64,000 bases of DNA from a virus. Lineage: Duplodnaviria > Caudoviricetes. The position numbers and the translations under genes are program-made. Under the pieces are notes generated by a model. The model was given only the letters and a program-made list of their open reading frames with translations, made no database searches and was not told the DNA's origin. The stretch lies in the IMG/VR virus record IMGVR_UViG_3300042352_000969, positions 19,092 through 83,091 of that record; one strand, written 5' to 3'. Numbering within the stretch: the stretch's first letter is position 1; each line of letters opens with the position of its first letter. Below are positions 1,290 to 37,534 of this stretch, in pieces.

Positions 1290-2114
1290 TTAATAATCGT
1301 AACTAAAAGCTTTATAGAACCAAGAAAACTTGTTGTATATATTATCGCAGTTCTGTTTTCCAAGAATATCTATATAGTCGTTAGGCACTGGTTTGATTAC
1401 TTTTTGAATAGTATGGTCACCAAAAGGAATGTGCATACGGTCATCTTCAAAAGTCTTTTGTTCTACGTTGTTAAAGTCGTGTTGATAAAATGGTAATTCA
1501 AGATACTCGTATACTCGTTCCATTTCTCTTTGAGGATTACTGGCGAAGTTTTCAAATTTAATAAATAAACATTTTTTACTTAATTTACGCATAATAGTAT
1601 CATACAATACATCAATACTTACAGCAAGTGGCGGCGCTTGCATTAAAAAGTAATCTATTCTCTTATCAACCGTAGTGTTACGAAGTTCGTTCCAGTTCTG
1701 AAGGCCAGCATCAATGTGCTGATATTGTCGCCACTTCTTTTCCATGCTCGCCACAACTGCTCGCAGATCGCGAACCATAACAATAACCTTTGGTTCTGGA
1801 TAATACCAGTTTAGAAAATCGTATGTAACGCTCCAGCCTCTGCTCTTGTCAATAACATATTTCTTATCAGTGATGGCGTTAAAATATGCAAACATGCCTT
1901 CTTTACAAAGAGCTTTGAATGCCGGTTCAACTACATTGATGTCTTGAGCCTTAAATTCAATATTTGTAGAATAAATATTTCTAGCATTAAGGAAGATTTC
2001 AATTAATCCACTAGTTGGTGTGGCATAAAAATCAGGATTTTGCGCCAGTACATTCTGTAACAATGTCGAACCTGCTCTCGGCAAAGAACATTGAAAAAAT
2101 ATCTTTTCTACCAT
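1290..2114 (-). CDS. PAPS-dependent sulfotransferase (start re-assigned to 2114, MVEKIFF)
   Basis: 5'-PSB loop SLPRAGSTLL, DKSRGW, 3'-PB motif VMVRDLRAVVAS, KFENFASNP. The longer 2186 start would overlap the divergent cysC gene. Confidence 0.85.
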   Translation of the reverse strand: MVEKIFFQCSLPRAGSTLLQNVLAQNPDFYATPTSGLIEIFLNARNIYSTNIEFKAQDINVVEPAFKALCKEGMFAYFNAITDKKYVIDKSRGWSVTYDFLNWYYPEPKVIVMVRDLRAVVASMEKKWRQYQHIDAGLQNWNELRNTTVDKRIDYFLMQAPPLAVSIDVLYDTIMRKLSKKCLFIKFENFASNPQREMERVYEYLELPFYQHDFNNVEQKTFEDDRMHIPFGDHTIQKVIKPVPNDYIDILGKQNCDNIYNKFSWFYKAFSYDY

Positions 2115-2124
2115 ACCATATAAT

Positions 2125-2580
2125 ATGCCAATTGGTTCGTTTTTAAAGGTATTAATTATGGGTTTGCCGGGATCTGGTAAAACCACATTAGCGGCAGATT
2201 TATCTTATCTTTTAAGCCATCATTATAAATGTCATTGGTTAAATGCAGATAAAGTTCGTGAACAATTCAACGATTGGGACTTCAGTGAAGCTGGTCGTGA
2301 ACGCCAAGGTAAAAGAATGAAAGATTTGGCCGACATGTACGGTCAATATAACGAAATAGTCATTTGCGACTTTGTATGTCCATTTCAAAAAACCAGAAAT
2401 CAATTTGATCCTGATTTTTTAATATTTATGAATACCATTAACGAATCAACATACGAAGATACTAATAAAGTATTTGAGCCGCCCAAAAAGTTTGATATCG
2501 AAGTTCAAAGTAAGAATAGCAGTTATTATTCTAAAATGATATACAACGAATTAGTTCGTAAGTTAAATAAAAAAGTGTAA
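2125..2580 (+). CDS. cysC: Adenylylsulfate (APS) kinase-like protein
   Basis: MGLPGSGKTTLA P-loop, WLNADKVR, DWDFSEAGRERQ, ICDFVCP. Confidence 0.8.
   Translation: MPIGSFLKVLIMGLPGSGKTTLAADLSYLLSHHYKCHWLNADKVREQFNDWDFSEAGRERQGKRMKDLADMYGQYNEIVICDFVCPFQKTRNQFDPDFLIFMNTINESTYEDTNKVFEPPKKFDIEVQSKNSSYYSKMIYNELVRKLNKKV
2575..2580 (+). promoter_or_regulatory. GTGTAA promoter motif, 9 nt upstream of ATG 2590
   Basis: AAGTGTAA-GATATATAT-ATG. Confidence 0.7.
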
Positions 2581-17381: not shown

Positions 17382-19139
17382 ATGGGAACAAAATTTACAG
17401 ACTTATCAGCAATAACAAGTTCGACAATAACAGATAATTTTGTTTTTGCTGTCGCTACGACAACAGAAACGGATCAATTGTCATTAAATGAGCTTCAAAA
17501 GTCATTTACTGGATTAACCGCTAGAACGACAAATGGTATAAAAATAGTAGGAAAAACTAAACCAAGTGGTATTTTTGTTAGTGATAATGGATTAGTGGGA
17601 GTAGATAATAACTCTCCAGACGTAGCATTAGAAGTAGGCGATTCTTTTCTTTCTACAAATGTGGCTCAAGTAAGAGTAACCGCTGGTTCATCTTCAAGAC
17701 AAGCGTCTTATTCTTTAAAAGACACTAGCGTTTTATGGAAGTTTACTAAAAAAGCTAGTGATACAGATTTTTATATTGAAGTTTCTCAAGATGGCGGGGC
17801 TACGCCTTCGACTACTGGAGTTTTTAATATAGATGTAAGCGGTAATGTTGGTATCTTTAATGGTTCAACAGCTTTATCTAATAAGTTTTATGTTTCTGGA
17901 GGAACTATAAAATTCGAAAGCGGAGTTTCTGGTTTTCTTTTTGATCCTTCAACAGCAGAAATAAAGACTTCTTCTGCTAATGATATTTTTTATATAAATA
18001 AAACAAATAATGATGATGTTGTTTTAGGTAATAATGTTTTATACGTGGATAATAATACATCGGTTCCTTTTATAGGAATTAATAATATTACTCCAGCTTA
18101 TCCTTTAGATATAAAAGGTTCGGGTCAATTAGGAAGATATGGAAATAATACAACGGCAACTACTAGTTTATCTTTTGAAAATACCGCAAGAACTGGATAC
18201 ATAGGAGTATATAATTCAAATTTTCAAATAGGTCCAACAAATTCTTTGTCTACAAACAATTTAGTTTATGATTTAGCTAATAGAAAATTAGGATTAGGAA
18301 CTACAACACCAACTGCAAAAATACATGTAGTTACTGACACTGCCGAAAATAGCGTTTTTGAATGTTATAATACTGAAACTTGTAAAAGCACTATTTTAAA
18401 CAGTTATGCAAGTGGTCCAGCTAAAACTGCATTTCAATCATTTGCTACTGGAACAGCTAGTAGTCAAATAACAAAATGGTCAATTGGTTTATTAAACAGT
18501 ATTAGTCCAGCATTTGATAGTGTTTTTGCTTTTTCATTAGGCGGTAGTTTAAGTGCGTCTGCTATAAAAGCTTATTTAAATGTTGATGGAGATTTGGATA
18601 TAAAAGGAGGAATAACCACAAGCGGAAATTATACTAAAGGAAAATTTGTTCAAGTTTTTAAGACTAGATTGACAGGAAACAATATTTATTTCGATCCATT
18701 TTCTGAATCTTCAAGTTCAAGCCCTAGTGGTCATAATTCAGTTTTATGCCCATTTGGAATAACTCCTTACGCTGGCAGAATAGAAAAAATTCAAATAATA
18801 AGTTCAGATAACATTAGCTCATATGCTGATGCTAGATTTGAAATAGCGGCGGTAACTCCAACGGCTAATACTCCTATAGGAGTTATAGATCAAACTACAT
18901 TTTTACCATGTTCTACTAGCGCTACAATAAGTGGTGCAATAGGATATTTAGAGATAGCATCTATAACTAGAAATCAACTATTAACTTTAAGTAGAACTCA
19001 ATTTACAAATACAACAGCTTTTGCTTCTGGACAATTATTGCAATATAGAGTATGTCAAGATGCTAATGCTTCTAGTCCAGGTCAAACCACAGCTAAGAAT
19101 TTTACAATTATGTCAACAGTTTCTTTTACAGTGACATGA
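17382..19139 (+). CDS. Tail fibre-like protein
   Basis: Repeated (V/I)G(I/V/L)xxxxPxxxLxV fibre motifs (VGVDNNSPDVALEV, IGINNITPAYPLDI, LGLGTTTPTAKIHV). Confidence 0.6.
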   Translation: MGTKFTDLSAITSSTITDNFVFAVATTTETDQLSLNELQKSFTGLTARTTNGIKIVGKTKPSGIFVSDNGLVGVDNNSPDVALEVGDSFLSTNVAQVRVTAGSSSRQASYSLKDTSVLWKFTKKASDTDFYIEVSQDGGATPSTTGVFNIDVSGNVGIFNGSTALSNKFYVSGGTIKFESGVSGFLFDPSTAEIKTSSANDIFYINKTNNDDVVLGNNVLYVDNNTSVPFIGINNITPAYPLDIKGSGQLGRYGNNTTATTSLSFENTARTGYIGVYNSNFQIGPTNSLSTNNLVYDLANRKLGLGTTTPTAKIHVVTDTAENSVFECYNTETCKSTILNSYASGPAKTAFQSFATGTASSQITKWSIGLLNSISPAFDSVFAFSLGGSLSASAIKAYLNVDGDLDIKGGITTSGNYTKGKFVQVFKTRLTGNNIYFDPFSESSSSSPSGHNSVLCPFGITPYAGRIEKIQIISSDNISSYADARFEIAAVTPTANTPIGVIDQTTFLPCSTSATISGAIGYLEIASITRNQLLTLSRTQFTNTTAFASGQLLQYRVCQDANASSPGQTTAKNFTIMSTVSFTVT

Positions 19140-30400: not shown

Positions 30401-30686
30401 TTCGATATCTGCTGATCCTAATTTTGCTACTTTAACTATTAATTTTACAACAATATACGCTTATTTAGCATCAAACTCTAAAATAACTGAAATTTTAAAT
30501 GCTTCTGGAGGTATTATTTGTAAAGTCACATTTAAAAATCAATCCATCAAGTTCTTGTCTCCAGCTTCATCTTATTCTAATAAAATTATTTTTCTTGGAA
30601 ACTACTCATTTAGTGGGCAAATATCAGCTTTATCTTCGATAAAATTTTATTTATACAACAAAAATTTCCAAATAATAGAAGTGTAA
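27459..30686 (+). CDS. Lambda gpJ-like tail tip / host specificity protein
   Basis: LICEGTIEGL, YPFSAL, KVPQNYDP, WTDNPAWIYYDLCTNSRYGIG, KWELYKISKYCDE, RFSAN, DLASIFRG, NVKDGLFTYS. Confidence 0.85.
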   Translation: MFINNTIPSNVTLSEIKDNKLETDERLITTDLICEGTIEGLVDKDGNLLKYVSVNNSSVDSDLCLGKGVYYNDVPLIDSKLNKLNFVNLGFNISYGEEVSRPFNEFPSTIYRYNQKIYLNESDYTIDNPLISTDKSNVFSFQDVDGVSVLKYNSKSTATATPVVGDLSSLKKRLDEAKNNCQEFTHKIQNKYADLISVQVKIDQLFNTDKKGSTQPSSLVYVIEFSEDNSADRYFTICSVVGVSKSGYVNEVFFELNLNNQKQNSYYIKVYALSRKIQPDDPKTFKELSVSSIIEKVTTRGSFNYPFSALVKSSVSSRHFQSDPNRTFDMKMLKIKVPQNYDPEAREYVDNWNGNYDGFLRWTDNPAWIYYDLCTNSRYGIGNGKIFEKDLNKWELYKISKYCDELIKSNEPTTCPEFSFYRKDADDKNCIFIAKTDEMSLSDFIKKFPPVIVISSTVVSNPAYNGGFCNSIIFLYDLLDSNNNKLTVGLKKIIWSIEDLGTSFKIKLINDFGPRRAFENEPTGDLLASFIKYCDFASTTGDLTSRIQRSLKNSESEAKSQILNWFASNVNNPKYSNYINSIINKSCFNNDLSDGSIVNGKCLPKVKNFRDPLEARFSANVLIDNETDCLKVLNDLASIFRGLTYYKNNFITATIDVDKKTSYIFNNTNVKDGLFTYSSGSLEALYTVAKVMYKDKFSNFNEQVEIIEDTKMMRDYGIIIKEILGFGISSRGQARRIGTWMLATNRFENQTITFSTDLQGLNLKPSDVIQVQDQYKNDSFLQGRVTSVDYTSKFITVDRKLNLNLAGCTIKFIFDNISKSIEDLNALSSVSLSDVDSLNASDVVELKIDRIENNTNKIYFDETYNYNLITRILPSVPFVIIDQTTNYSKNLYKVITISEVDNNEYSFFCIKHDPSKYEALDQNAFENPNSNSINNTIVFSSYDNLQEIDLTSCANYYTLNQKLTYNTIRHSKIDYYLNDASSISADPNFATLTINFTTIYAYLASNSKITEILNASGGIICKVTFKNQSIKFLSPASSYSNKIIFLGNYSFSGQISALSSIKFYLYNKNFQIIEV
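30681..30686 (+). promoter_or_regulatory. GTGTAA promoter motif, 8 nt upstream of the fibre gene
   Basis: AAGTGTAA-TATAATAT-ATG. Confidence 0.7.
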
Positions 30687-30694
30687 TATAATAT

Positions 30695-33600
30695 ATGCCT
30701 GTAATTACTGGTCAAAATTTAACGGATGATGCGCCTTTTTTAATATCTAATTTGATATTAAGTAACAAAAGCGATTTTACTTCTTTAAATTATTCGTTGT
30801 CTCCAGAAAGTTTTGGTTTACCTTTCGATTCAAAGTTTGTTTCTGGAAACATTGCTCAAAGCTCTTTAAATTTTTCTTTATCTATTGTTGATCCGTATAA
30901 TAATAAAACGATAACTAATTCTATAGTTTTATCGGATGTTTTTTCTGGTATTAAAGTTGATTTGTATACTCAAAATAGAGATTACGTAGGTAATCTAGTA
31001 CAAAATACTAATAACACTCAAATACAAATAGATTCAAAATCTTTTTCTGATCTTATAGGCGGTTACACTGGTTTTGATAATCTTAATAATTTAAGAACGT
31101 TTTTCATTGACTTTTCTACTTATGATTTAAATGGTAGTTCTGATGTTTATTATTTTTTAGCTAATTATCCTAAAGTAAATATAACGGGTTTTGATATAAA
31201 AAATTTAAACCCCATTTCAGTAACTCCTTTAGTAGATGATTTCAAATTTTTAAAATCTGTTGATATTTACGCCGTTCCAAACCCAAGTGTAGTTCCTTTG
31301 TCTGGAACTTATGATTTTGCAAATAGTGGTATTTTTACTTCTGCTTTCAATTATGAATCGAATAGATATCAACAAACTTTTTCTATATCTCCACCTTCTT
31401 ATATTGATACTGATTTAAACATAACTTTGCCTTTTAATATTGTTGCGATTCCTAATGATTATTTATATACTGGAGCTTATTTTTTATCTTCAGGAATCAA
31501 GTCTTCTTATTATAACACAGATTCTGTACCAGTATCAATTAATAACATTACTGGTTATATAAATTGTTCGCAGAATGTTTTTGATAAAAATTTAGACATA
31601 CAAGCGATTGTTAAGTGGGACGCTATAAAAACAGATAATTCATTATCTTTTGAAACATATGTTTATGAAAATGGAGTGGATAATGCAAGTTATGTATTTG
31701 CTTCTAATAATACTAACGTAGAAGCAATAAGTAAGATAAATTATGGTACTGGGCAGAATTTAATTCGCAATAAAGATCAATCAACTTACTATTCTGGAAC
31801 TGAGCCTATTTTTAAAACATATGGCGCTTCAGGAATTAGTTGGTCGGATCATACATTGTTTATAGATAATTACTTTTCTTTGCCATTGGGTTTGTACAAT
31901 ACTGGTAAAAAATTAAACTATGTAACAGAAGTAAGAATAGCGTCTGGGATTTCTAATTCCTCAGAGTTGTATTTTGTATATGGATATAATACCGGAAACG
32001 ATGAATTTTTCATATTGCCAAGCGGCGGGTTGTATACAGGAAGTATTTATACAGGAACTTATTCAGGCTATCGTAAGTTTTCTAATTTAATTCCTGATTT
32101 AGAGTTTACTTATTTAGGGGTATCTTATCCTGCTGTTGATCCAGGTGTTGGTAATTTAACGTCTGATATTTCTTTATCTTCTGATAATATTACTCAAATT
32201 TATCTTGACGCTACAGACGACAATGGATTTAGTGTTGCAACTTGGTTGTCAAGTCTTTCAAGTTTCATTAAAATTTCAAAGAAAAATGATATTAGTGTTT
32301 ATCAAATATTAAACGTTGGTACTGACACAAATGAAGGCGGTTGGTTTACTTTAGATGTAACAAGTTTTAGAGATAATAATGCTGTGGGTTTTCAAGTTAA
32401 TGATCAATTAATAATTTCTCATGTTAGACCCAGTATTGAACAAGTTGTAAATGAAACTGGTATTTTATTAGCATCGAGAATAACAGGCTCTTCTGATTTT
32501 GTATTTTCTCAATTTGAACCGTCAATTCAATTTCCAGTAAAACCAGATAAAAATTACGATGTAAAAGTTAGGGCTTCTTATCAAGACGGAAGCTACTCTG
32601 ATTTTTCTGATATTTTAAGATTTACAAAAAATCAAATACAAACAGAAGTATATAGAGTTTTTCCAAATAAATATGTTATTGATGGTCTAGGTGTTAGTGG
32701 ATATATACCAAAATTCTCTGATTCAGATAGTTTAACAACAGGTACATTATATTATAGCGGTAGTAATAATTTAGTATTTACTGAATTGCCAACAACAACA
32801 ACTTCAGAAAATTTATATAAATTAGTAGTTGAAGATAACATTGTAAAAAAACAATTAGATACAGGGAGCGGCACTTCTTTAATTGAAGAGTTTACTGTTG
32901 CTGCTCATGGTTTTATTGCCGGTGATGTTATTAGATTCGATGGAACAAATTATTTTAAAGCGCAAGCAGACAGCGCCGCACATGCAGAAGTATTGGGTGT
33001 TGTTAAGTCGGTAACTACAAATACTTTTAAAGTGGTGATAGATGGATTGATAACTGGTTTGTCGGGTTTGATTGCTGGAACTGTTTACTTTTTAAATACG
33101 ACTACTTCTGGAACGTGGCAATCAGTTGAGCCGACAGCTTATGGTGAGATATCTAAGCCGATATTATTCGCGTTATCAGCTACAACTGCAAATGTGTTAA
33201 CTTTTCGTGGTATTGAAATTTCTCCTGTAAGCGGAACTTCTGGTTCATCAGGAACAAGCGGATCAAGCGGATCAAGCGGATCAAGTGGAACAAGCGGATC
33301 ATCAGGTACAAGTGGATCATCGGGAACTAGTGGAACAGCAACACAGGCAAGCTCTTTAGCTAAATATAGTAATACCGCTCAAACCATACCTCCGAGTACA
33401 GATACTAAAGTAGATTGGAATACTGCTGATACTGCAAATAGCCAAGGATCTACTGGTTTAACTTTTACTTCATCAAATAAATTTACAAATAGTTCTGGAG
33501 CGTCTTGTATTGTAAATGTTGATGGTTATATAAGTTGGGAACTCGGAGGAGCTTCTAATACTACAAGGTCAGTATTTATAGTTAAAAATGGAAACACAGC

Positions 33601-35719
33601 TTCTCTTCAAGGTAGATATTCTTATAATAGCGTATCGACTAATAATGAGTATACGGTAATAAATTTTAGTTCTACATTAACATTAGCGAACAATGATTAT
33701 TTTGAAATATATGTTTTTCATAACGATTCTTCTTCACAAGATATAAATGTAAGAAATGATTTTCCTGCTAGTAGAATTTTAATTACTAAAGTAGAAGGCG
33801 TAGAAGGTCCGTCTGGAACAAGTGGTTCTTCTGGAACAAGCGGTTCTTCTGGAACAAGCGGTTCTTCTGGAACAAGCGGTTCTTCTGGAACAAGTGGATC
33901 ATCTGGATCAAGTGGTACTTCTGGATCAAGTGGCACTTCTGGATCAAGTGGTACTTCTGGATCAAGCGGTACTTCTGGATCAAGCGGTACGAGTGGATCA
34001 TCTGGATCAAGTGGTACTTCTGGATCAAGTGGCACTTCTGGATCAAGCGGTACGAGTGGATCATCTGGATCAAGTGGTACTTCTGGATCAAGCGGTACGA
34101 GTGGATCATCTGGATCAAGTGGTACTTCTGGATCAAGTGGTACTTCTGGATCAAGTGGCACTTCTGGATCAAGTGGCACTTCTGGATCAAGTGGTACTTC
34201 TGGATCAAGTGGTACTTCTGGATCAAGTGGTACGAGTGGATCATCTGGATCAAGTGGTACTTCTGGATCAAGTGGTACTTCTGGATCAAGTGGTACTTCT
34301 GGATCAAGTGGTACTTCTGGATCAAGTGGTACGAGTGGATCATCTGGATCAAGTGGTACTTCTGGATCAAGTGGTACTTCTGGATCAAGTGGCACTTCTG
34401 GATCAAGCGGTACGAGTGGATCATCTGGATCAAGTGGTACTTCTGGATCAAGTGGTACTTCTGGATCAAGTGGCACTTCTGGATCAAGTGGCACTTCTGG
34501 ATCAAGTGGTACTTCTGGATCAAGTGGTACTTCTGGATCAAGTGGTACTTCTGGATCAAGTGGTACTTCTGGATCAAGTGGTACGAGTGGATCATCTGGA
34601 TCAAGTGGCACTTCTGGATCAAGTGGCACTTCTGGATCAAGTGGTACTTCTGGATCAAGTGGCACTTCTGGATCAAGTGGCACTTCTGGATCAAGTGGTA
34701 CTTCTGGATCAAGTGGTACTTCTGGATCAAGTGGTACTTCTGGATCAAGTGGTACTTCTGGATCAAGTGGTACTTCTGGATCAAGTGGTACGAGTGGATC
34801 AGACGGTACTTCTGGATCAAGTGGTACTTCTGGATCAAGTGGTACTTCTGGATCAAGTGGTACTTCTGGATCAGGATCAAGTGGTACTTCTGGATCAAGT
34901 GGTACTTCTGGATCAAGTGGTACTTCTGGATCAAGTGGTACTTCTGGATCAAGTGGTACGAGTGGATCAAACGGTACTTCTGGATCAAGTGGAACAAGTG
35001 GATCTGGACTTGGTAGTTCTGGCAGCATTGATTACATTTCTAAATACGATAGTTCTTCAAGCTTAACTAACTCTTCTATTTTTAACTCCTCTTCAGGAAA
35101 TGTCGGAATTGGCACTAACACTCCAACAAATACTCTTGAAATTTACTCTGGTGGAACAAAAAATTACGGTAGTAATGATATTGCTTATATTAACGCTAAC
35201 GGAGAAACATATTTTAAAAATACTGCAAGTGAGTCTTACATGTTTAGTAATCGGGCTATTTCATTTTATGCCCAATCAACACCGATGGTGTACATAAATA
35301 GCACAAAAGTTGGTATTGGAACTAGTACTCCAGGTTACATGTTAGATGTTGCTGGTCAATGCCATGCTAGTTGTTTTCCAACTTCATCTGATCTTCGTTT
35401 TAAAAAGAACATAGTTCCATTACAAAACGCTTTAGAAAAGGTCTTAGCATTAAGAGGTGTTACATATGAATGGAATGAATTTATTCATTCTATACGTAGT
35501 GGATATGATTTAAATGTTCCGGTTATAGGAATGATTGCTCAAGAAGTAGAAGAAATTATTCCTCAAATTGTTGGAACATGGAAATTGAATGATGAATTGA
35601 CAGACGCAAGATCATTAGAATATCAAAGATTAGTTCCATATTTAATTGAAGCTATTAAAGAACAGCAAAAACAAATTGATCAATTAAAATTAGATGTAAA
35701 AACATTAATGAACATATAA
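30695..35719 (+). CDS. Tail fibre with Ser/Thr collagen-like repeats, a C1q-like domain and a C-terminal S74 intramolecular chaperone
   Basis: SDLRFKKNI...LRGVTYEW...GMIAQEVEEIIP...YQRLVPYLIEAIKEQQKQI (peptidase S74 chaperone); GIGTNTP / GIGTSTP fibre motifs; Gly-X-Y tracts. Confidence 0.85.
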   Translation: MPVITGQNLTDDAPFLISNLILSNKSDFTSLNYSLSPESFGLPFDSKFVSGNIAQSSLNFSLSIVDPYNNKTITNSIVLSDVFSGIKVDLYTQNRDYVGNLVQNTNNTQIQIDSKSFSDLIGGYTGFDNLNNLRTFFIDFSTYDLNGSSDVYYFLANYPKVNITGFDIKNLNPISVTPLVDDFKFLKSVDIYAVPNPSVVPLSGTYDFANSGIFTSAFNYESNRYQQTFSISPPSYIDTDLNITLPFNIVAIPNDYLYTGAYFLSSGIKSSYYNTDSVPVSINNITGYINCSQNVFDKNLDIQAIVKWDAIKTDNSLSFETYVYENGVDNASYVFASNNTNVEAISKINYGTGQNLIRNKDQSTYYSGTEPIFKTYGASGISWSDHTLFIDNYFSLPLGLYNTGKKLNYVTEVRIASGISNSSELYFVYGYNTGNDEFFILPSGGLYTGSIYTGTYSGYRKFSNLIPDLEFTYLGVSYPAVDPGVGNLTSDISLSSDNITQIYLDATDDNGFSVATWLSSLSSFIKISKKNDISVYQILNVGTDTNEGGWFTLDVTSFRDNNAVGFQVNDQLIISHVRPSIEQVVNETGILLASRITGSSDFVFSQFEPSIQFPVKPDKNYDVKVRASYQDGSYSDFSDILRFTKNQIQTEVYRVFPNKYVIDGLGVSGYIPKFSDSDSLTTGTLYYSGSNNLVFTELPTTTTSENLYKLVVEDNIVKKQLDTGSGTSLIEEFTVAAHGFIAGDVIRFDGTNYFKAQADSAAHAEVLGVVKSVTTNTFKVVIDGLITGLSGLIAGTVYFLNTTTSGTWQSVEPTAYGEISKPILFALSATTANVLTFRGIEISPVSGTSGSSGTSGSSGSSGSSGTSGSSGTSGSSGTSGTATQASSLAKYSNTAQTIPPSTDTKVDWNTADTANSQGSTGLTFTSSNKFTNSSGASCIVNVDGYISWELGGASNTTRSVFIVKNGNTASLQGRYSYNSVSTNNEYTVINFSSTLTLANNDYFEIYVFHNDSSSQDINVRNDFPASRILITKVEGVEGPSGTSGSSGTSGSSGTSGSSGTSGSSGTSGSSGSSGTSGSSGTSGSSGTSGSSGTSGSSGTSGSSGSSGTSGSSGTSGSSGTSGSSGSSGTSGSSGTSGSSGSSGTSGSSGTSGSSGTSGSSGTSGSSGTSGSSGTSGSSGTSGSSGSSGTSGSSGTSGSSGTSGSSGTSGSSGTSGSSGSSGTSGSSGTSGSSGTSGSSGTSGSSGSSGTSGSSGTSGSSGTSGSSGTSGSSGTSGSSGTSGSSGTSGSSGTSGSSGTSGSSGSSGTSGSSGTSGSSGTSGSSGTSGSSGTSGSSGTSGSSGTSGSSGTSGSSGTSGSSGTSGSSGTSGSDGTSGSSGTSGSSGTSGSSGTSGSGSSGTSGSSGTSGSSGTSGSSGTSGSSGTSGSNGTSGSSGTSGSGLGSSGSIDYISKYDSSSSLTNSSIFNSSSGNVGIGTNTPTNTLEIYSGGTKNYGSNDIAYINANGETYFKNTASESYMFSNRAISFYAQSTPMVYINSTKVGIGTSTPGYMLDVAGQCHASCFPTSSDLRFKKNIVPLQNALEKVLALRGVTYEWNEFIHSIRSGYDLNVPVIGMIAQEVEEIIPQIVGTWKLNDELTDARSLEYQRLVPYLIEAIKEQQKQIDQLKLDVKTLMNI
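33233..33337 (+). repeat. Short GTS/GSS Gly-X-Y tract
   Basis: About 35 aa of GTSGSS-type triplets with heterogeneous codons. Confidence 0.9.
33806..34999 (+). repeat. Long tandem repeat, 18-bp unit ggatcaagtggtacttct (GSSGTS) with 9-bp variants
   Basis: About 1.2 kb, roughly 130 Gly-X-Y triplets with one register break (GS-GSS near 34870). Confidence 0.97.
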
Positions 35720-35726
35720 TATATTT

Positions 35727-36413
35727 GTGGCCGATATCTTTAATTCTTTTGATAAAATATACTGTATAAATCTGCCAACTAGAAAAGATAGATGGCAGAA
35801 TTGCTTGCTTCAGTTTACAAAATATAATTTATTAAATAATGTAGAAAAATTTCATGGAATCATTTATAATTGTTTTTCTTTCAATAGGAAGCAAAATGCT
35901 CATTTAGGGTGTTGGTTTTCTCATTATAGTATTTTAAAACACGCTCAAGCTATGCGTTATAATAAAATATTAATATTAGAAGACGATTTTGTTTTTAATT
36001 TTGAGCCTGAAGATTTAAATTTAAAACTAACTTGTTGTATAAATGAATTGCCGCAAAATTGGGACTTGTTTTATTTGGGCGCTTATTTTGTTAAAGGTTA
36101 TGATTATGAAGCCAAAACAAACTATTGTAAAAATTTATACAAAGCTAATACCGCTTTTTGTACTCATTCTATTTGTTACTCAAAATCAGGAATTGATAAA
36201 ATGATACAGTGTATGGAAAAAGTTTTTTTAAATTCATCTTTTATGGTTTTGAATTACGAAAGTATTGGATGGTTTTATGTTAAAGAATTCTTGTACGAAA
36301 ATAATTGTTATGCTAGCAAAGACTTTTTATGCGGACAGATGAAAGACTTTTCAGATATAGAAGGTAGAGTGGTTGATTATAATGATTATTTTTTAAAAGG
36401 ATACGCTTCGTAA
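35727..36413 (+). CDS. Glycosyltransferase family 25
   Basis: FDKIYCINLPTRKDRW, GCWFSHYSILKHA, ILILEDDF, WDLFYLG. GTG start. Confidence 0.8.
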   Translation: MADIFNSFDKIYCINLPTRKDRWQNCLLQFTKYNLLNNVEKFHGIIYNCFSFNRKQNAHLGCWFSHYSILKHAQAMRYNKILILEDDFVFNFEPEDLNLKLTCCINELPQNWDLFYLGAYFVKGYDYEAKTNYCKNLYKANTAFCTHSICYSKSGIDKMIQCMEKVFLNSSFMVLNYESIGWFYVKEFLYENNCYASKDFLCGQMKDFSDIEGRVVDYNDYFLKGYAS

Positions 36414-36416
36414 CAA

Positions 36417-36422
36417 GTGTAA
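36417..36422 (+). promoter_or_regulatory. GTGTAA promoter motif, 8 nt upstream of ATG 36431
   Basis: AAGTGTAA-TATTTTAT-ATG. Confidence 0.7.
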
Positions 36423-36430
36423 TATTTTAT

Positions 36431-37534
36431 ATGCCGATTACTAGAAACAGAGTTATATATGCTGGAACTGATGTTTTAGTTTCTGATTCGCCGTCATGGA
36501 CTGGGCAAACAGGCGTTGCATCTTTAAAGTTGTTAAAAAGAATTCAATCAAGTAGCATATCTGTATCTAATCCAATCACTCGTCCAAAACAAATTGGTAG
36601 TTCTGATTTTGCATTTGAAAAATATATAACTATTCCAGAAATTGCTGTTGATTTAAAATATTTTGTTTCTGACAACTCTAATGAATTACTTTTAGGATTA
36701 AACGCTACTGGTAACGAATCATTCTTGAAAAACATGGCTGTTTCTGGTCAGGATAAAAATTTATTCTTTTTACTATCGGATACAAATTCTCAAGATGCCG
36801 ACAGTTTAACAGATATGGTTGGAAATGATGTTTTTGCGGTTGGCAATACTTTTTTAACTAATTATTCTTTATCTGCTCAAGTTGGATCTATTCCAACTGT
36901 TTCTGTTTCTTTTTCTTGTTTGAATGTGACTTTTCAAACTTATAATGGAACTGGAGCAAATGGAAGCGATGTTCCGGCAATTAATTTAACAAATGGAATA
37001 AAATCAACAGGAAAATATTTGCTTACTGGAGCGAACATGTCTCCATCAAATTATTTATCAAATCAAAATTCTAGACCATATGCTATTAGGCCAGGAGATG
37101 TAGTTCTTCAATTGCCCCAAACGTTTATGGGTGGTATTAGATATTCTGGGGATGTGCCAGCCACAATATCTTCTTTAGAAATCAACGTTCCAATAGAAAG
37201 AAAAGATTTATTAGGTTTTGGTAGCAATTATCCATACGACAAAAGAATAATGTATCCATTAATTGGTACAGTAAGTTTTAATGGAATTTTTGATGAACCA
37301 GTAACAGGTGATTTTAGCAGCATCTTCAACAACGATACTGCTTATGATTTAACTTTTAATTTAAAAAATTATAATGGCGCAACTGGTTTAAGGGTAGAAA
37401 TTTTAAACGCTAGAATAGATAGTCAGTCTTTTGATTTATCAATAGGAGATAATATGAATTTTCAATCTAGTTTTTCATTTAAGATTTTTGAAACAGATGG
37501 AATGAGAATAAGTGGTGCGGCAAGGTTAATTTAA
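36431..37534 (+). CDS. Second tail-tube-like protein (paralogue of 3154-4488)
   Basis: Shared blocks RNRVIY, KRIQ, SAQVGSIPTVSV, AIRPGDVVL and SIGDN. Confidence 0.6.
   Translation: MPITRNRVIYAGTDVLVSDSPSWTGQTGVASLKLLKRIQSSSISVSNPITRPKQIGSSDFAFEKYITIPEIAVDLKYFVSDNSNELLLGLNATGNESFLKNMAVSGQDKNLFFLLSDTNSQDADSLTDMVGNDVFAVGNTFLTNYSLSAQVGSIPTVSVSFSCLNVTFQTYNGTGANGSDVPAINLTNGIKSTGKYLLTGANMSPSNYLSNQNSRPYAIRPGDVVLQLPQTFMGGIRYSGDVPATISSLEINVPIERKDLLGFGSNYPYDKRIMYPLIGTVSFNGIFDEPVTGDFSSIFNNDTAYDLTFNLKNYNGATGLRVEILNARIDSQSFDLSIGDNMNFQSSFSFKIFETDGMRISGAARLI

Follow-up and report, generated by a model that had tools for sequence, protein, structure and literature searches.

The 64,000-nucleotide stretch of viral DNA analysed here (positions 19,092 to 83,091 of the IMG/VR record IMGVR_UViG_3300042352_000969, hereafter the window) contains an open reading frame (ORF) at 30695-35719 which, judged by its sequence and gene order, encodes the long tail fibre of an uncultured freshwater phage whose tail-tip genes stand in a lambda-like order. 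The protein very probably forms a trimer in which an 846-residue anchor and shaft is followed by a 12-triplet hinge, a TNF/C1q-type knob, a tract of 134 Gly-(Ser/Thr)-Ser triplets, a tip of ~125 residues and an S74 chaperone. This tract probably folds as a collagen-type triple helix, and we put the chances that the resulting stalk carries sugars in the virion slightly below even. Taken as a whole, the explanation that we favour, which combines the fibre, the helix and a probable O-glycosylation of the stalk, stands in our judgement at even chances.

The Gly-X-Y tract of GTS and GSS triplets described in the initial annotation is borne out by 146 triplets in three runs (12, 120 and 14), which the Pfam Collagen profile (PF01391) matches at E 9.7e-57 (189.1 bits against a cut-off of 27.2). 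Position 33233, given there as the start, is right, whereas the tract ends at 35008 and not at 34999; the description as proline-free holds nearly but not fully, since a sole Pro is found in a GPS triplet, the second of the main tract. The 438 tract residues comprise 216 Ser, 148 Gly and 68 Thr, with one each of Ala, Val, Glu, Pro, Asp and Asn, and Ser or Thr fill 284 of the 292 X and Y positions (97%). The 120 triplets of the main tract have Ser or Thr at X and, in 117 cases, Ser at Y, and Lys is absent from the entire collagen-like sequence. The usual stabilisers of collagen, Pro or hydroxyproline (Hyp) at X or Y and charged pairs, are practically missing, with one Pro and two charged residues among the 292 positions.

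By current understanding, a collagen helix depends on imino acids, on charge pairs or on glycosylated Thr. The initial annotation took Gly-X-Y helices usually to require Pro/Hyp or charge pairs; this premise loses weight in view of Burkholderia Bucl8, whose Pro-free (GAS)n gave a weak triple-helix signal by circular dichroism (PMC7682875). Like the tract described here, the Bucl8 repeat is a Pro-free, uncharged, single-motif Gly-X-Ser repeat carried on a trimer, but it comprises 6-38 triplets on an outer-membrane efflux protein, whereas the phage fibre has 134 triplets with Ser or Thr at X. A stalk of ~400 residues without imino acids (bar one Pro) or charge pairs, of a class common in lake and other aquatic phages, would, if it folds, widen the sequence rules of the triple helix and offer a simple design for recombinant collagen-like material.

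Further indications for a helix come from related fibres. Two fibres that share both the C-terminus and the downstream gene, L002 and L003, carry GTS/GSS blocks in phase with GPQ, GPI and GPT triplets, which marks this position as a genuine collagen stalk. The prophage fibre EPclA of E. coli O157:H7 and the PHROG families 'collagen like minor tail' and 'tail fiber' likewise place a Gly-X-Y stalk between non-collagen trimerising domains of a trimeric tail fibre, and the Pro-rich EPclA is a proven triple helix with a rise of ~2.9 A per residue (PMC3368898). With this value the main tract, of 404 residues, would be ~115 nm long if triple-helical. EPclA differs in that its 111 collagen residues are rich in Pro at X and in charged pairs (Tm 42 C), as opposed to 438 residues with one Pro and two charges, and in that PfN, PCoil and PfC flank its stalk in place of a TNF-like knob and an S74 chaperone.

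At the DNA level the main tract repeats an 18-nt unit in tandem and uses only 13 distinct 9-nt words; it is a young, homogenised array, so that duplication accounts for part of its Gly period. Short-read contigs from four lake metagenomes that are identical to the window cover 32600-33853 and all end ~55 nt into the array, so that the repeat number rests on this one assembly.

Domains that are trimeric in solved relatives flank the main tract on both sides, the knob on its N-terminal and the chaperone on its C-terminal side. According to its structural model and its homology to a spike of Staphylococcus phage 812, the knob is C1q/TNF-like at the level of the fold. The AlphaFold (AF2) model is all-beta with eleven strands (mean pLDDT 93.6), and Foldseek matches it with probability 1.00 to the phage 812 knob, BclA (TMt 0.70-0.72), ExsFA/BxpB, C1q heads and TNF ligands (TMt as high as 0.79, with 0.74 for C1q), as well as to a chain of the cyanophage A4 portal-tail complex and the short-tail-fibre CBD of cyanophage A-1(L). 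The TM range of 0.6-0.79 to BclA, C1q, TNF ligands and ExsFA is that of a shared jelly-roll fold. The C1q/TNF-like domain that had been proposed between the two tracts thus stands as a fold and by phage 812 homology but not as a Pfam family, as neither C1q (PF00386) nor the TNF family matched the knob at E <= 0.01. Knobs of this type probably bind sugars in other phages. An exhaustive HMMER search with residues 883-1034 returned 115 relatives, many of them located directly behind collagen tracts or forming the C-terminal heads of short proteins, and a profile of 53 knob relatives matches the central spike knob of phage 812 in the PDB (9euf/9eul) at E 5.7e-12. This spike knob is TNF-like and, according to its authors, probably sugar-binding (PMC13433997).

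The C-terminus is by its sequence an S74 chaperone with an intact Ser-Lys dyad, for which autocleavage is predicted; here the initial annotation proved correct. Pfam Peptidase_S74 (PF13884) matches residues 1565-1626 at E 2e-14 (54 bits against a cut-off of 22), and Ser1565, Asp1566 and Lys1570 are invariant across 47 aligned relatives. We take the Ser-Lys dyad to act at the cleavage site, as in the endosialidase chaperones. The model of this domain (pLDDT 89-98) is matched by Foldseek to the MyRF ICA domain (TMt 0.70) and to the phage chaperones 3gud, 3gw6 and 4uw8. The tip region of about 125 residues in front of it, which gave a low-confidence monomer model, would stay as the fibre end after chaperone release. 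In one relative, P0119, the knob is followed by 38 GTS/GSS/GIS triplets and then by the S74 cleavage motif without an intervening tip; there the collagen-like tract itself would form the distal fibre end once the chaperone is released.

The assignment as a tail fibre is further suggested by the upstream genes, which encode a protein of tape-measure size (2719 residues), a gpL-like protein (Phage_tail_L, E 2e-34) and a gpJ-like protein (PHROG 'central tail fiber J', E 4e-103) and thereby place the ORF at the tail-fibre position of lambda-like phages. PHROG tail-fibre families match the protein itself with E values of 1e-55 to 1e-28, while neither Pfam nor PHROG matched anything ahead of residue 841, and megablast against deposited phage genomes gave zero matches to the fibre region. 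The N-terminal part has four homologues of 46-61% identity whose distal parts are all unlike: in one, 42 GSS/GTS triplets are combined with a long end that is not of the S74 type, two lack collagen entirely, and in the fourth 38 triplets come after the same knob and are joined straight to the S74 cleavage site. These differing ends indicate that the fibre combines a conserved anchor with exchangeable distal modules.

We envisage that the knob and the chaperone bring three chains into register, upon which the tract would zip up as a collagen-type triple helix and the chaperone would cleave itself off at Ser1565. A helix without imino acids or charge pairs could be held together by its length, by the trimeric clamps at its ends and by hydroxyl and water bonding, and its Pro-free composition may partly reflect the AT-rich genome (~32% G+C in the window). 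The Ser and Thr residues of the stalk would probably be O-glycosylated before or during trimerisation. The best candidate enzyme is the soluble GT25 glycosyltransferase (GT) encoded in the same block, 7 nt downstream of the fibre, which might be supplied with substrates by the nucleotide-sugar genes of the phage. That this GT25 modifies the stalk we nonetheless regard as unlikely, if conceivable.

The view of the initial annotation that the stalk is a dense O-glycosylation scaffold and a substrate of the phage glycan machinery appears plausible, though the evidence is mixed. Support across phages comes from the TibC/Aah family of transferases (TIGR04414). Among 80 viral loci collected with the TibC copy of contig L002, a Ser/Thr-rich, Pro-poor Gly-X-Y ORF lies within 8 kb in 31, compared with 1 of 80 GT25 loci and 4 of 80 S74-fibre loci (TibC versus GT25, Fisher p = 5e-10, or 4e-8 with near-duplicates collapsed). 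Conversely, a TibC hidden Markov model (HMM) matches 6 of the 120 listed loci with the Ser/Thr pattern and none at loci without such a tract. On contig L113 a TibC/Aah-type transferase (342 bits against a cut-off of 200) is encoded 4 kb behind a 577-triplet Ser/Thr fibre, and contig L002 combines a fibre-adjacent GT25 and two TibC-type genes above the cut-off within 9 kb. In G006, a more distant relative (the 127.7-kb record of L400, 88% complete), a TibC domain is part of a 1317-residue ORF (104835-108785) located 13-17 kb from two Ser/Thr collagen genes. Because of this TibC link, Ser/Thr tracts across phages are good candidates for protein O-glycosylation. In the known systems TibC-TibA and Aah-AIDA-I, a soluble transferase heptosylates many Ser residues of a repetitive, fibre-like acceptor, and phage copies are encoded near the same type of repeat; the window differs in that its linked enzyme is a GT25, no TibC-type gene having been found in it or its near flanks.

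Precedents also exist for glycosylation of the acceptor type and for viral enzymes acting on virion proteins. The filaments of the Bacillus anthracis exosporium protein BclA likewise combine a collagen-like region with a TNF/C1q-type jelly roll. The BclA repeat is mainly GPT, with Pro at X and Thr at Y. Since the tract described here has Thr at X and Ser at Y, it is not a BclA-type repeat; moreover, the BclA head is C-terminal whereas the knob is internal, between two collagen tracts, and the likeness shown is structural. BclA is O-glycosylated (PMC8968730), and phage-encoded virion glycosylation has been described in mycobacteriophages (Freeman et al., 2023, as cited in PMC12363180). In Che8, Corndog and Myrna, as far as this citing source relates, phage transferases modify the phages' own structural proteins, namely capsid and tail tube subunits, by means of other enzyme families, whereas the candidate substrate proposed here is a collagen-like fibre. 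For viruses in general, collagen glycosylation by a viral enzyme has a precedent in mimivirus.

The GT25 gene itself deserves a closer description. Its product matches Pfam PF01755 over part of the profile (29.4 bits against a cut-off of 24), and no transmembrane segment is present. Sequence relatives in the PDB are confined to human COLGALT1; as the same search matched no bacterial GT25, a greater nearness to COLGALT1 than to lipopolysaccharide (LPS) enzymes is not implied. The E-D-D of the phage protein (in L-I-L-E-D-D-F) aligns with the catalytic EDD of the COLGALT1 GT2 domain, where Glu-Asp-Asp binds Mn2+ (PMC12003778). The metazoan GLT25D1/COLGALT1 system likewise pairs a GT25 with a collagen-type substrate and has this metal site in common with the phage enzyme, but COLGALT1 acts on hydroxylysine, and the phage GT25 is a small single-domain protein. 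A hydroxylysine-type modification as by COLGALT1 was rejected, since the tract is devoid of Lys.

Read directly, the motif GTGTAA precedes the fibre gene and the gene after GT25 but is absent ahead of GT25, so that fibre and GT25 look like one unit and may be co-transcribed. In a set of 80 viral GT25 loci, a collagen-like S74 fibre gene precedes GT25 in just the three nearest relatives, the other 77 having no collagen ORF within 8 kb; a fibre search yielded two further fibre-adjacent loci (L082 and L083). In a quick maximum-likelihood tree the six fibre-adjacent GT25 sequences form one clade with a Shimodaira-Hasegawa-like approximate likelihood ratio test (SH-aLRT) support of 100 and internal path lengths of more than 1 substitution per site. 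Every member of the clade is located behind a collagen-like fibre gene, while the genes further downstream vary among members. We speculate that this clade could represent collagen glycosyltransferases acting on Ser and Thr of the nascent stalk, with a sugar-held glyco-collagen helix in place of one based on hydroxyproline, although we consider this distinctly unlikely. If true, viruses would have a counterpart of metazoan collagen galactosylation, and there would be a third way of stabilising a collagen helix. More generally, a stalk coated with sugars by the co-encoded GT25 would mean that phages pair collagen and GT25 as animals do, and fibre glycans could then influence how hosts are recognised and how abundant freshwater phages persist.

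Several observations weigh against a glycosylated stalk with GT25 as its modifying enzyme. One member of the clade, L003, follows a Pro-rich tract of GPI, GPT and GLQ triplets with 17% Ser/Thr, and thus the clade does not track Ser/Thr content. The GT25 of G006, which stands beside the clade on the tree, sits in a glycan block away from the fibre. GT25 also includes soluble LPS-core transferases, so that a host glycan would fit equally well as the target. A TibC-type gene was found by phmmer and a local HMM neither in the window nor, for close relatives whose copy of the query protein is 94-100% identical, within 10 kb past either window end. As for the association that the initial annotation had suggested looking for, between such repeats and GTs across phages, it holds for TibC and for the one GT25 clade but not for GTs directly downstream in general: a GT was detected by Pfam among the two downstream ORFs in 3 of 34 independent Ser/Thr collagen loci and in 1 of 39 controls (p = 0.33). 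Furthermore, as the repeat is young and homogenised, Ser/Thr conservation within it says little about selection, and the structural models are monomers, in which trimerisation is not visible.

These points lend weight to the main alternative, in which the stalk forms a Pro-free triple helix without sugars, its Ser and Thr result from AT-rich codon bias, and GT25 and the glycan island act on host LPS or capsule, for instance in receptor masking, or on other virion proteins. We consider this a serious possibility, albeit not a probable one. The flanks of Ser/Thr, Pro-poor collagen loci have a low G+C content (median 34%, 10th-90th percentile 30-39%), as opposed to 44% in the Pro-rich relative L003, but L002 combines 27% G+C with 16% Pro, and codon bias is therefore not the whole explanation. 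(GAS)n folds without sugars, GTs are not enriched directly behind such fibres, the GT25 clade is independent of Ser/Thr content and Pfam describes GT25 as an LPS biosynthesis family; in addition, the gene after GT25 resembles, as a lead only, a tail tube protein, and in mycobacteriophages tail tubes are among the targets of glycosylation according to the account in PMC12363180. On the other hand, the strong TibC link suggests that the tracts are acceptors in many phages at least, and GT25 has kept its place next to the fibre gene despite changes in the genes further downstream. Its location in the late structural block without a GTGTAA motif of its own also makes for poor timing with regard to receptor masking.

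An improbable variant is that the stalk is glycosylated by another enzyme, either a transferase of TibC/Aah type whose gene lies outside the window or one from the 11-kb glycan island, with GT25 extending the glycan or having another target. It is TibC-type genes and not GT25 that display the association across genomes; both types occur together on L002, G006 has its TibC domain at some distance from the Ser/Thr fibres, and the genome probably exceeds the stretch examined, to judge by the size of this 88%-complete relative. However, in close relatives the span that reaches from ~10 kb upstream of the window to 10 kb past its end gave no TibC-type match, and neither did the relatives G004 and G005, which are 50-58% complete. 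Very improbable, finally, is a Gly/Ser/Thr tether that is disordered and flexible and owes its expansion to replication slippage. In its favour, Gly/Ser-rich sequence is a classic flexible linker, imino acids and charges are almost absent, and a Gly period in an array of only 13 distinct 9-nt units could stem from inheritance and not from selection. Against it, the register is strict over 146 triplets with one break, trimeric-fold domains stand at both ends, Pro-containing collagen triplets share the phase of GTS/GSS in homologous fibres, tracts of this composition occur on at least 120 contigs and reach 719 triplets, and the Pfam Collagen match is strong.

Tracts of this type are not confined to this phage. 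A degenerate DNA pattern for (GSS-GTS)x3 was found on at least 120 viral contigs; among the matches listed, 82 of 120 have a Gly-X-Y ORF with Ser/Thr at 80% or more of the X and Y positions and Pro at no more than 2%, and the Ser/Thr collagen ORFs have a median of 109 and a maximum of 719 triplets. The Ser/Thr tract type is thus not rare but widespread in uncultured phages. Literature searches on proline-free or GTS/GSS phage collagens found nothing specific, and as far as we could find the Ser/Thr variant of phage collagen-like fibres is apparently unpublished. The N-terminal part of the fibre gene is present in near-identical form in lake and freshwater metagenomes from 17 coded studies, some of which may share one sampling campaign; 16 of the metagenome runs were flagged as possible sources. 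The GSS/GTS repeat type is also abundant in lake metagenomes, on many other contigs: in four of them the summed contig depth over GSS/GTS-coding bins (33202-33330 and 33804-33860) reaches up to ~500 times the depth of the flanks, with matches of 90-95% from hundreds of short contigs.

Table 1. Positions of the fibre gene, its parts and neighbouring features in the window.
Feature	Position	Strand	Description
GTGTAA motif	30681-30686	+	8 nt ahead of the fibre ATG, read directly
Fibre ORF	30695-35719	+	1674 aa, one ORF
N-terminal part, presumed anchor and shaft	30695-33232	+	846 aa, without family assignment
Short collagen-like tract	33233-33340	+	aa 847-882, 12 triplets GTS/GSS, final triplet GTA
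TNF/C1q/BclA-type jelly-roll knob	33341-33796	+	aa 883-1034, 152 aa
Main Gly-(Ser/Thr)-Ser stalk	33797-35008	+	120 triplets, two-residue break, 14 triplets
120-triplet run	33797-34876	+	aa 1035-1394
Two-residue break in stalk	34877-34882	+	between the 120- and 14-triplet runs
14-triplet run	34883-35008	+	aa 1397-1438
Distal tip region	35009-35386	+	aa 1439-1564, two V-G-I-G-T motifs
S74 intramolecular chaperone	35387-35719	+	aa 1565-1674 and stop codon
Low-complexity ORFs overlapping the repeat in other frames	33718-35028; 33786-34997; 33822-35066	-; -; +	403-436 aa
GT25 glycosyltransferase gene	35727-36413	+	GTG start 7 nt past the fibre stop; single domain, 228 aa
GTGTAA motif, second copy	36417-36422	+	8 nt ahead of the ATG of the gene after GT25
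ORF after GT25	36431-37534	+	367 aa
Sulfotransferase gene	1290-2186	-	Sulfotransfer_3, E 6e-18

The three low-complexity ORFs that overlap the repeat were rejected as genes, being by-products of the 18-nt array. The ORF after GT25 has no Pfam or PHROG match; it falls into viral clusters of the ESM Atlas, some of them with Phage_tube_2 or Phi812_tail_tube, and may be tail-tube-like.

Elsewhere in the window, the 11-kb glycan island encodes GT2, a nucleotidyltransferase-HAD protein, an FkbM methyltransferase, WavE, a GT1-like protein, fcl and gmd, all of them soluble products, and a soluble, LPS-core-type action is possible. Membrane-bound glycan export encoded in the window was rejected, since none of its 55 ORFs specifies a polytopic membrane protein. 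The sulfotransferase gene lies far from the island; as it is encoded, sulfated glycans may be made.

Some of the loci collected in the comparisons show further arrangements. A second, distant GT25-like group is found inside large multidomain proteins near Ser/Thr collagen ORFs (L247:4259-5590, L209:5072-7522, L164:3352-5736 and L113:7087-9750); it clusters on the quick tree with long branches and support of 80-89, and as these loci were picked for their collagen ORFs, the collagen link of this group is biased. On L113 (1-11884) the 577 Pro-free triplets (GTS/GSS/GSN/GST) are followed by an 888-residue GT1 protein whose end is weakly GT25-like, by a GT4 and by the TibC/Aah-type transferase. The two Ser/Thr collagen genes of G006 (121925-127706) run off the contig end and the contig starts inside an S74 fibre C-terminus; this assembly was probably broken by the repeat.

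One ORF downstream of Ser/Thr collagen genes (alignment A2) encodes a 2OG-Fe(II) oxygenase (2OG-FeII_Oxy_3, E 2.8e-14), a superfamily that includes prolyl and lysyl hydroxylases. In the region upstream of the window start, the 98% relative L446 (10753-20760) carries a 323-residue ORF with a GT4-like G-G-S-E motif near its N-terminus and, just outside the window, a 2315-residue ORF, and L449, L457, L459 and L460 contain further Gly-X-Y ORFs of 37-52 triplets in this upstream region.

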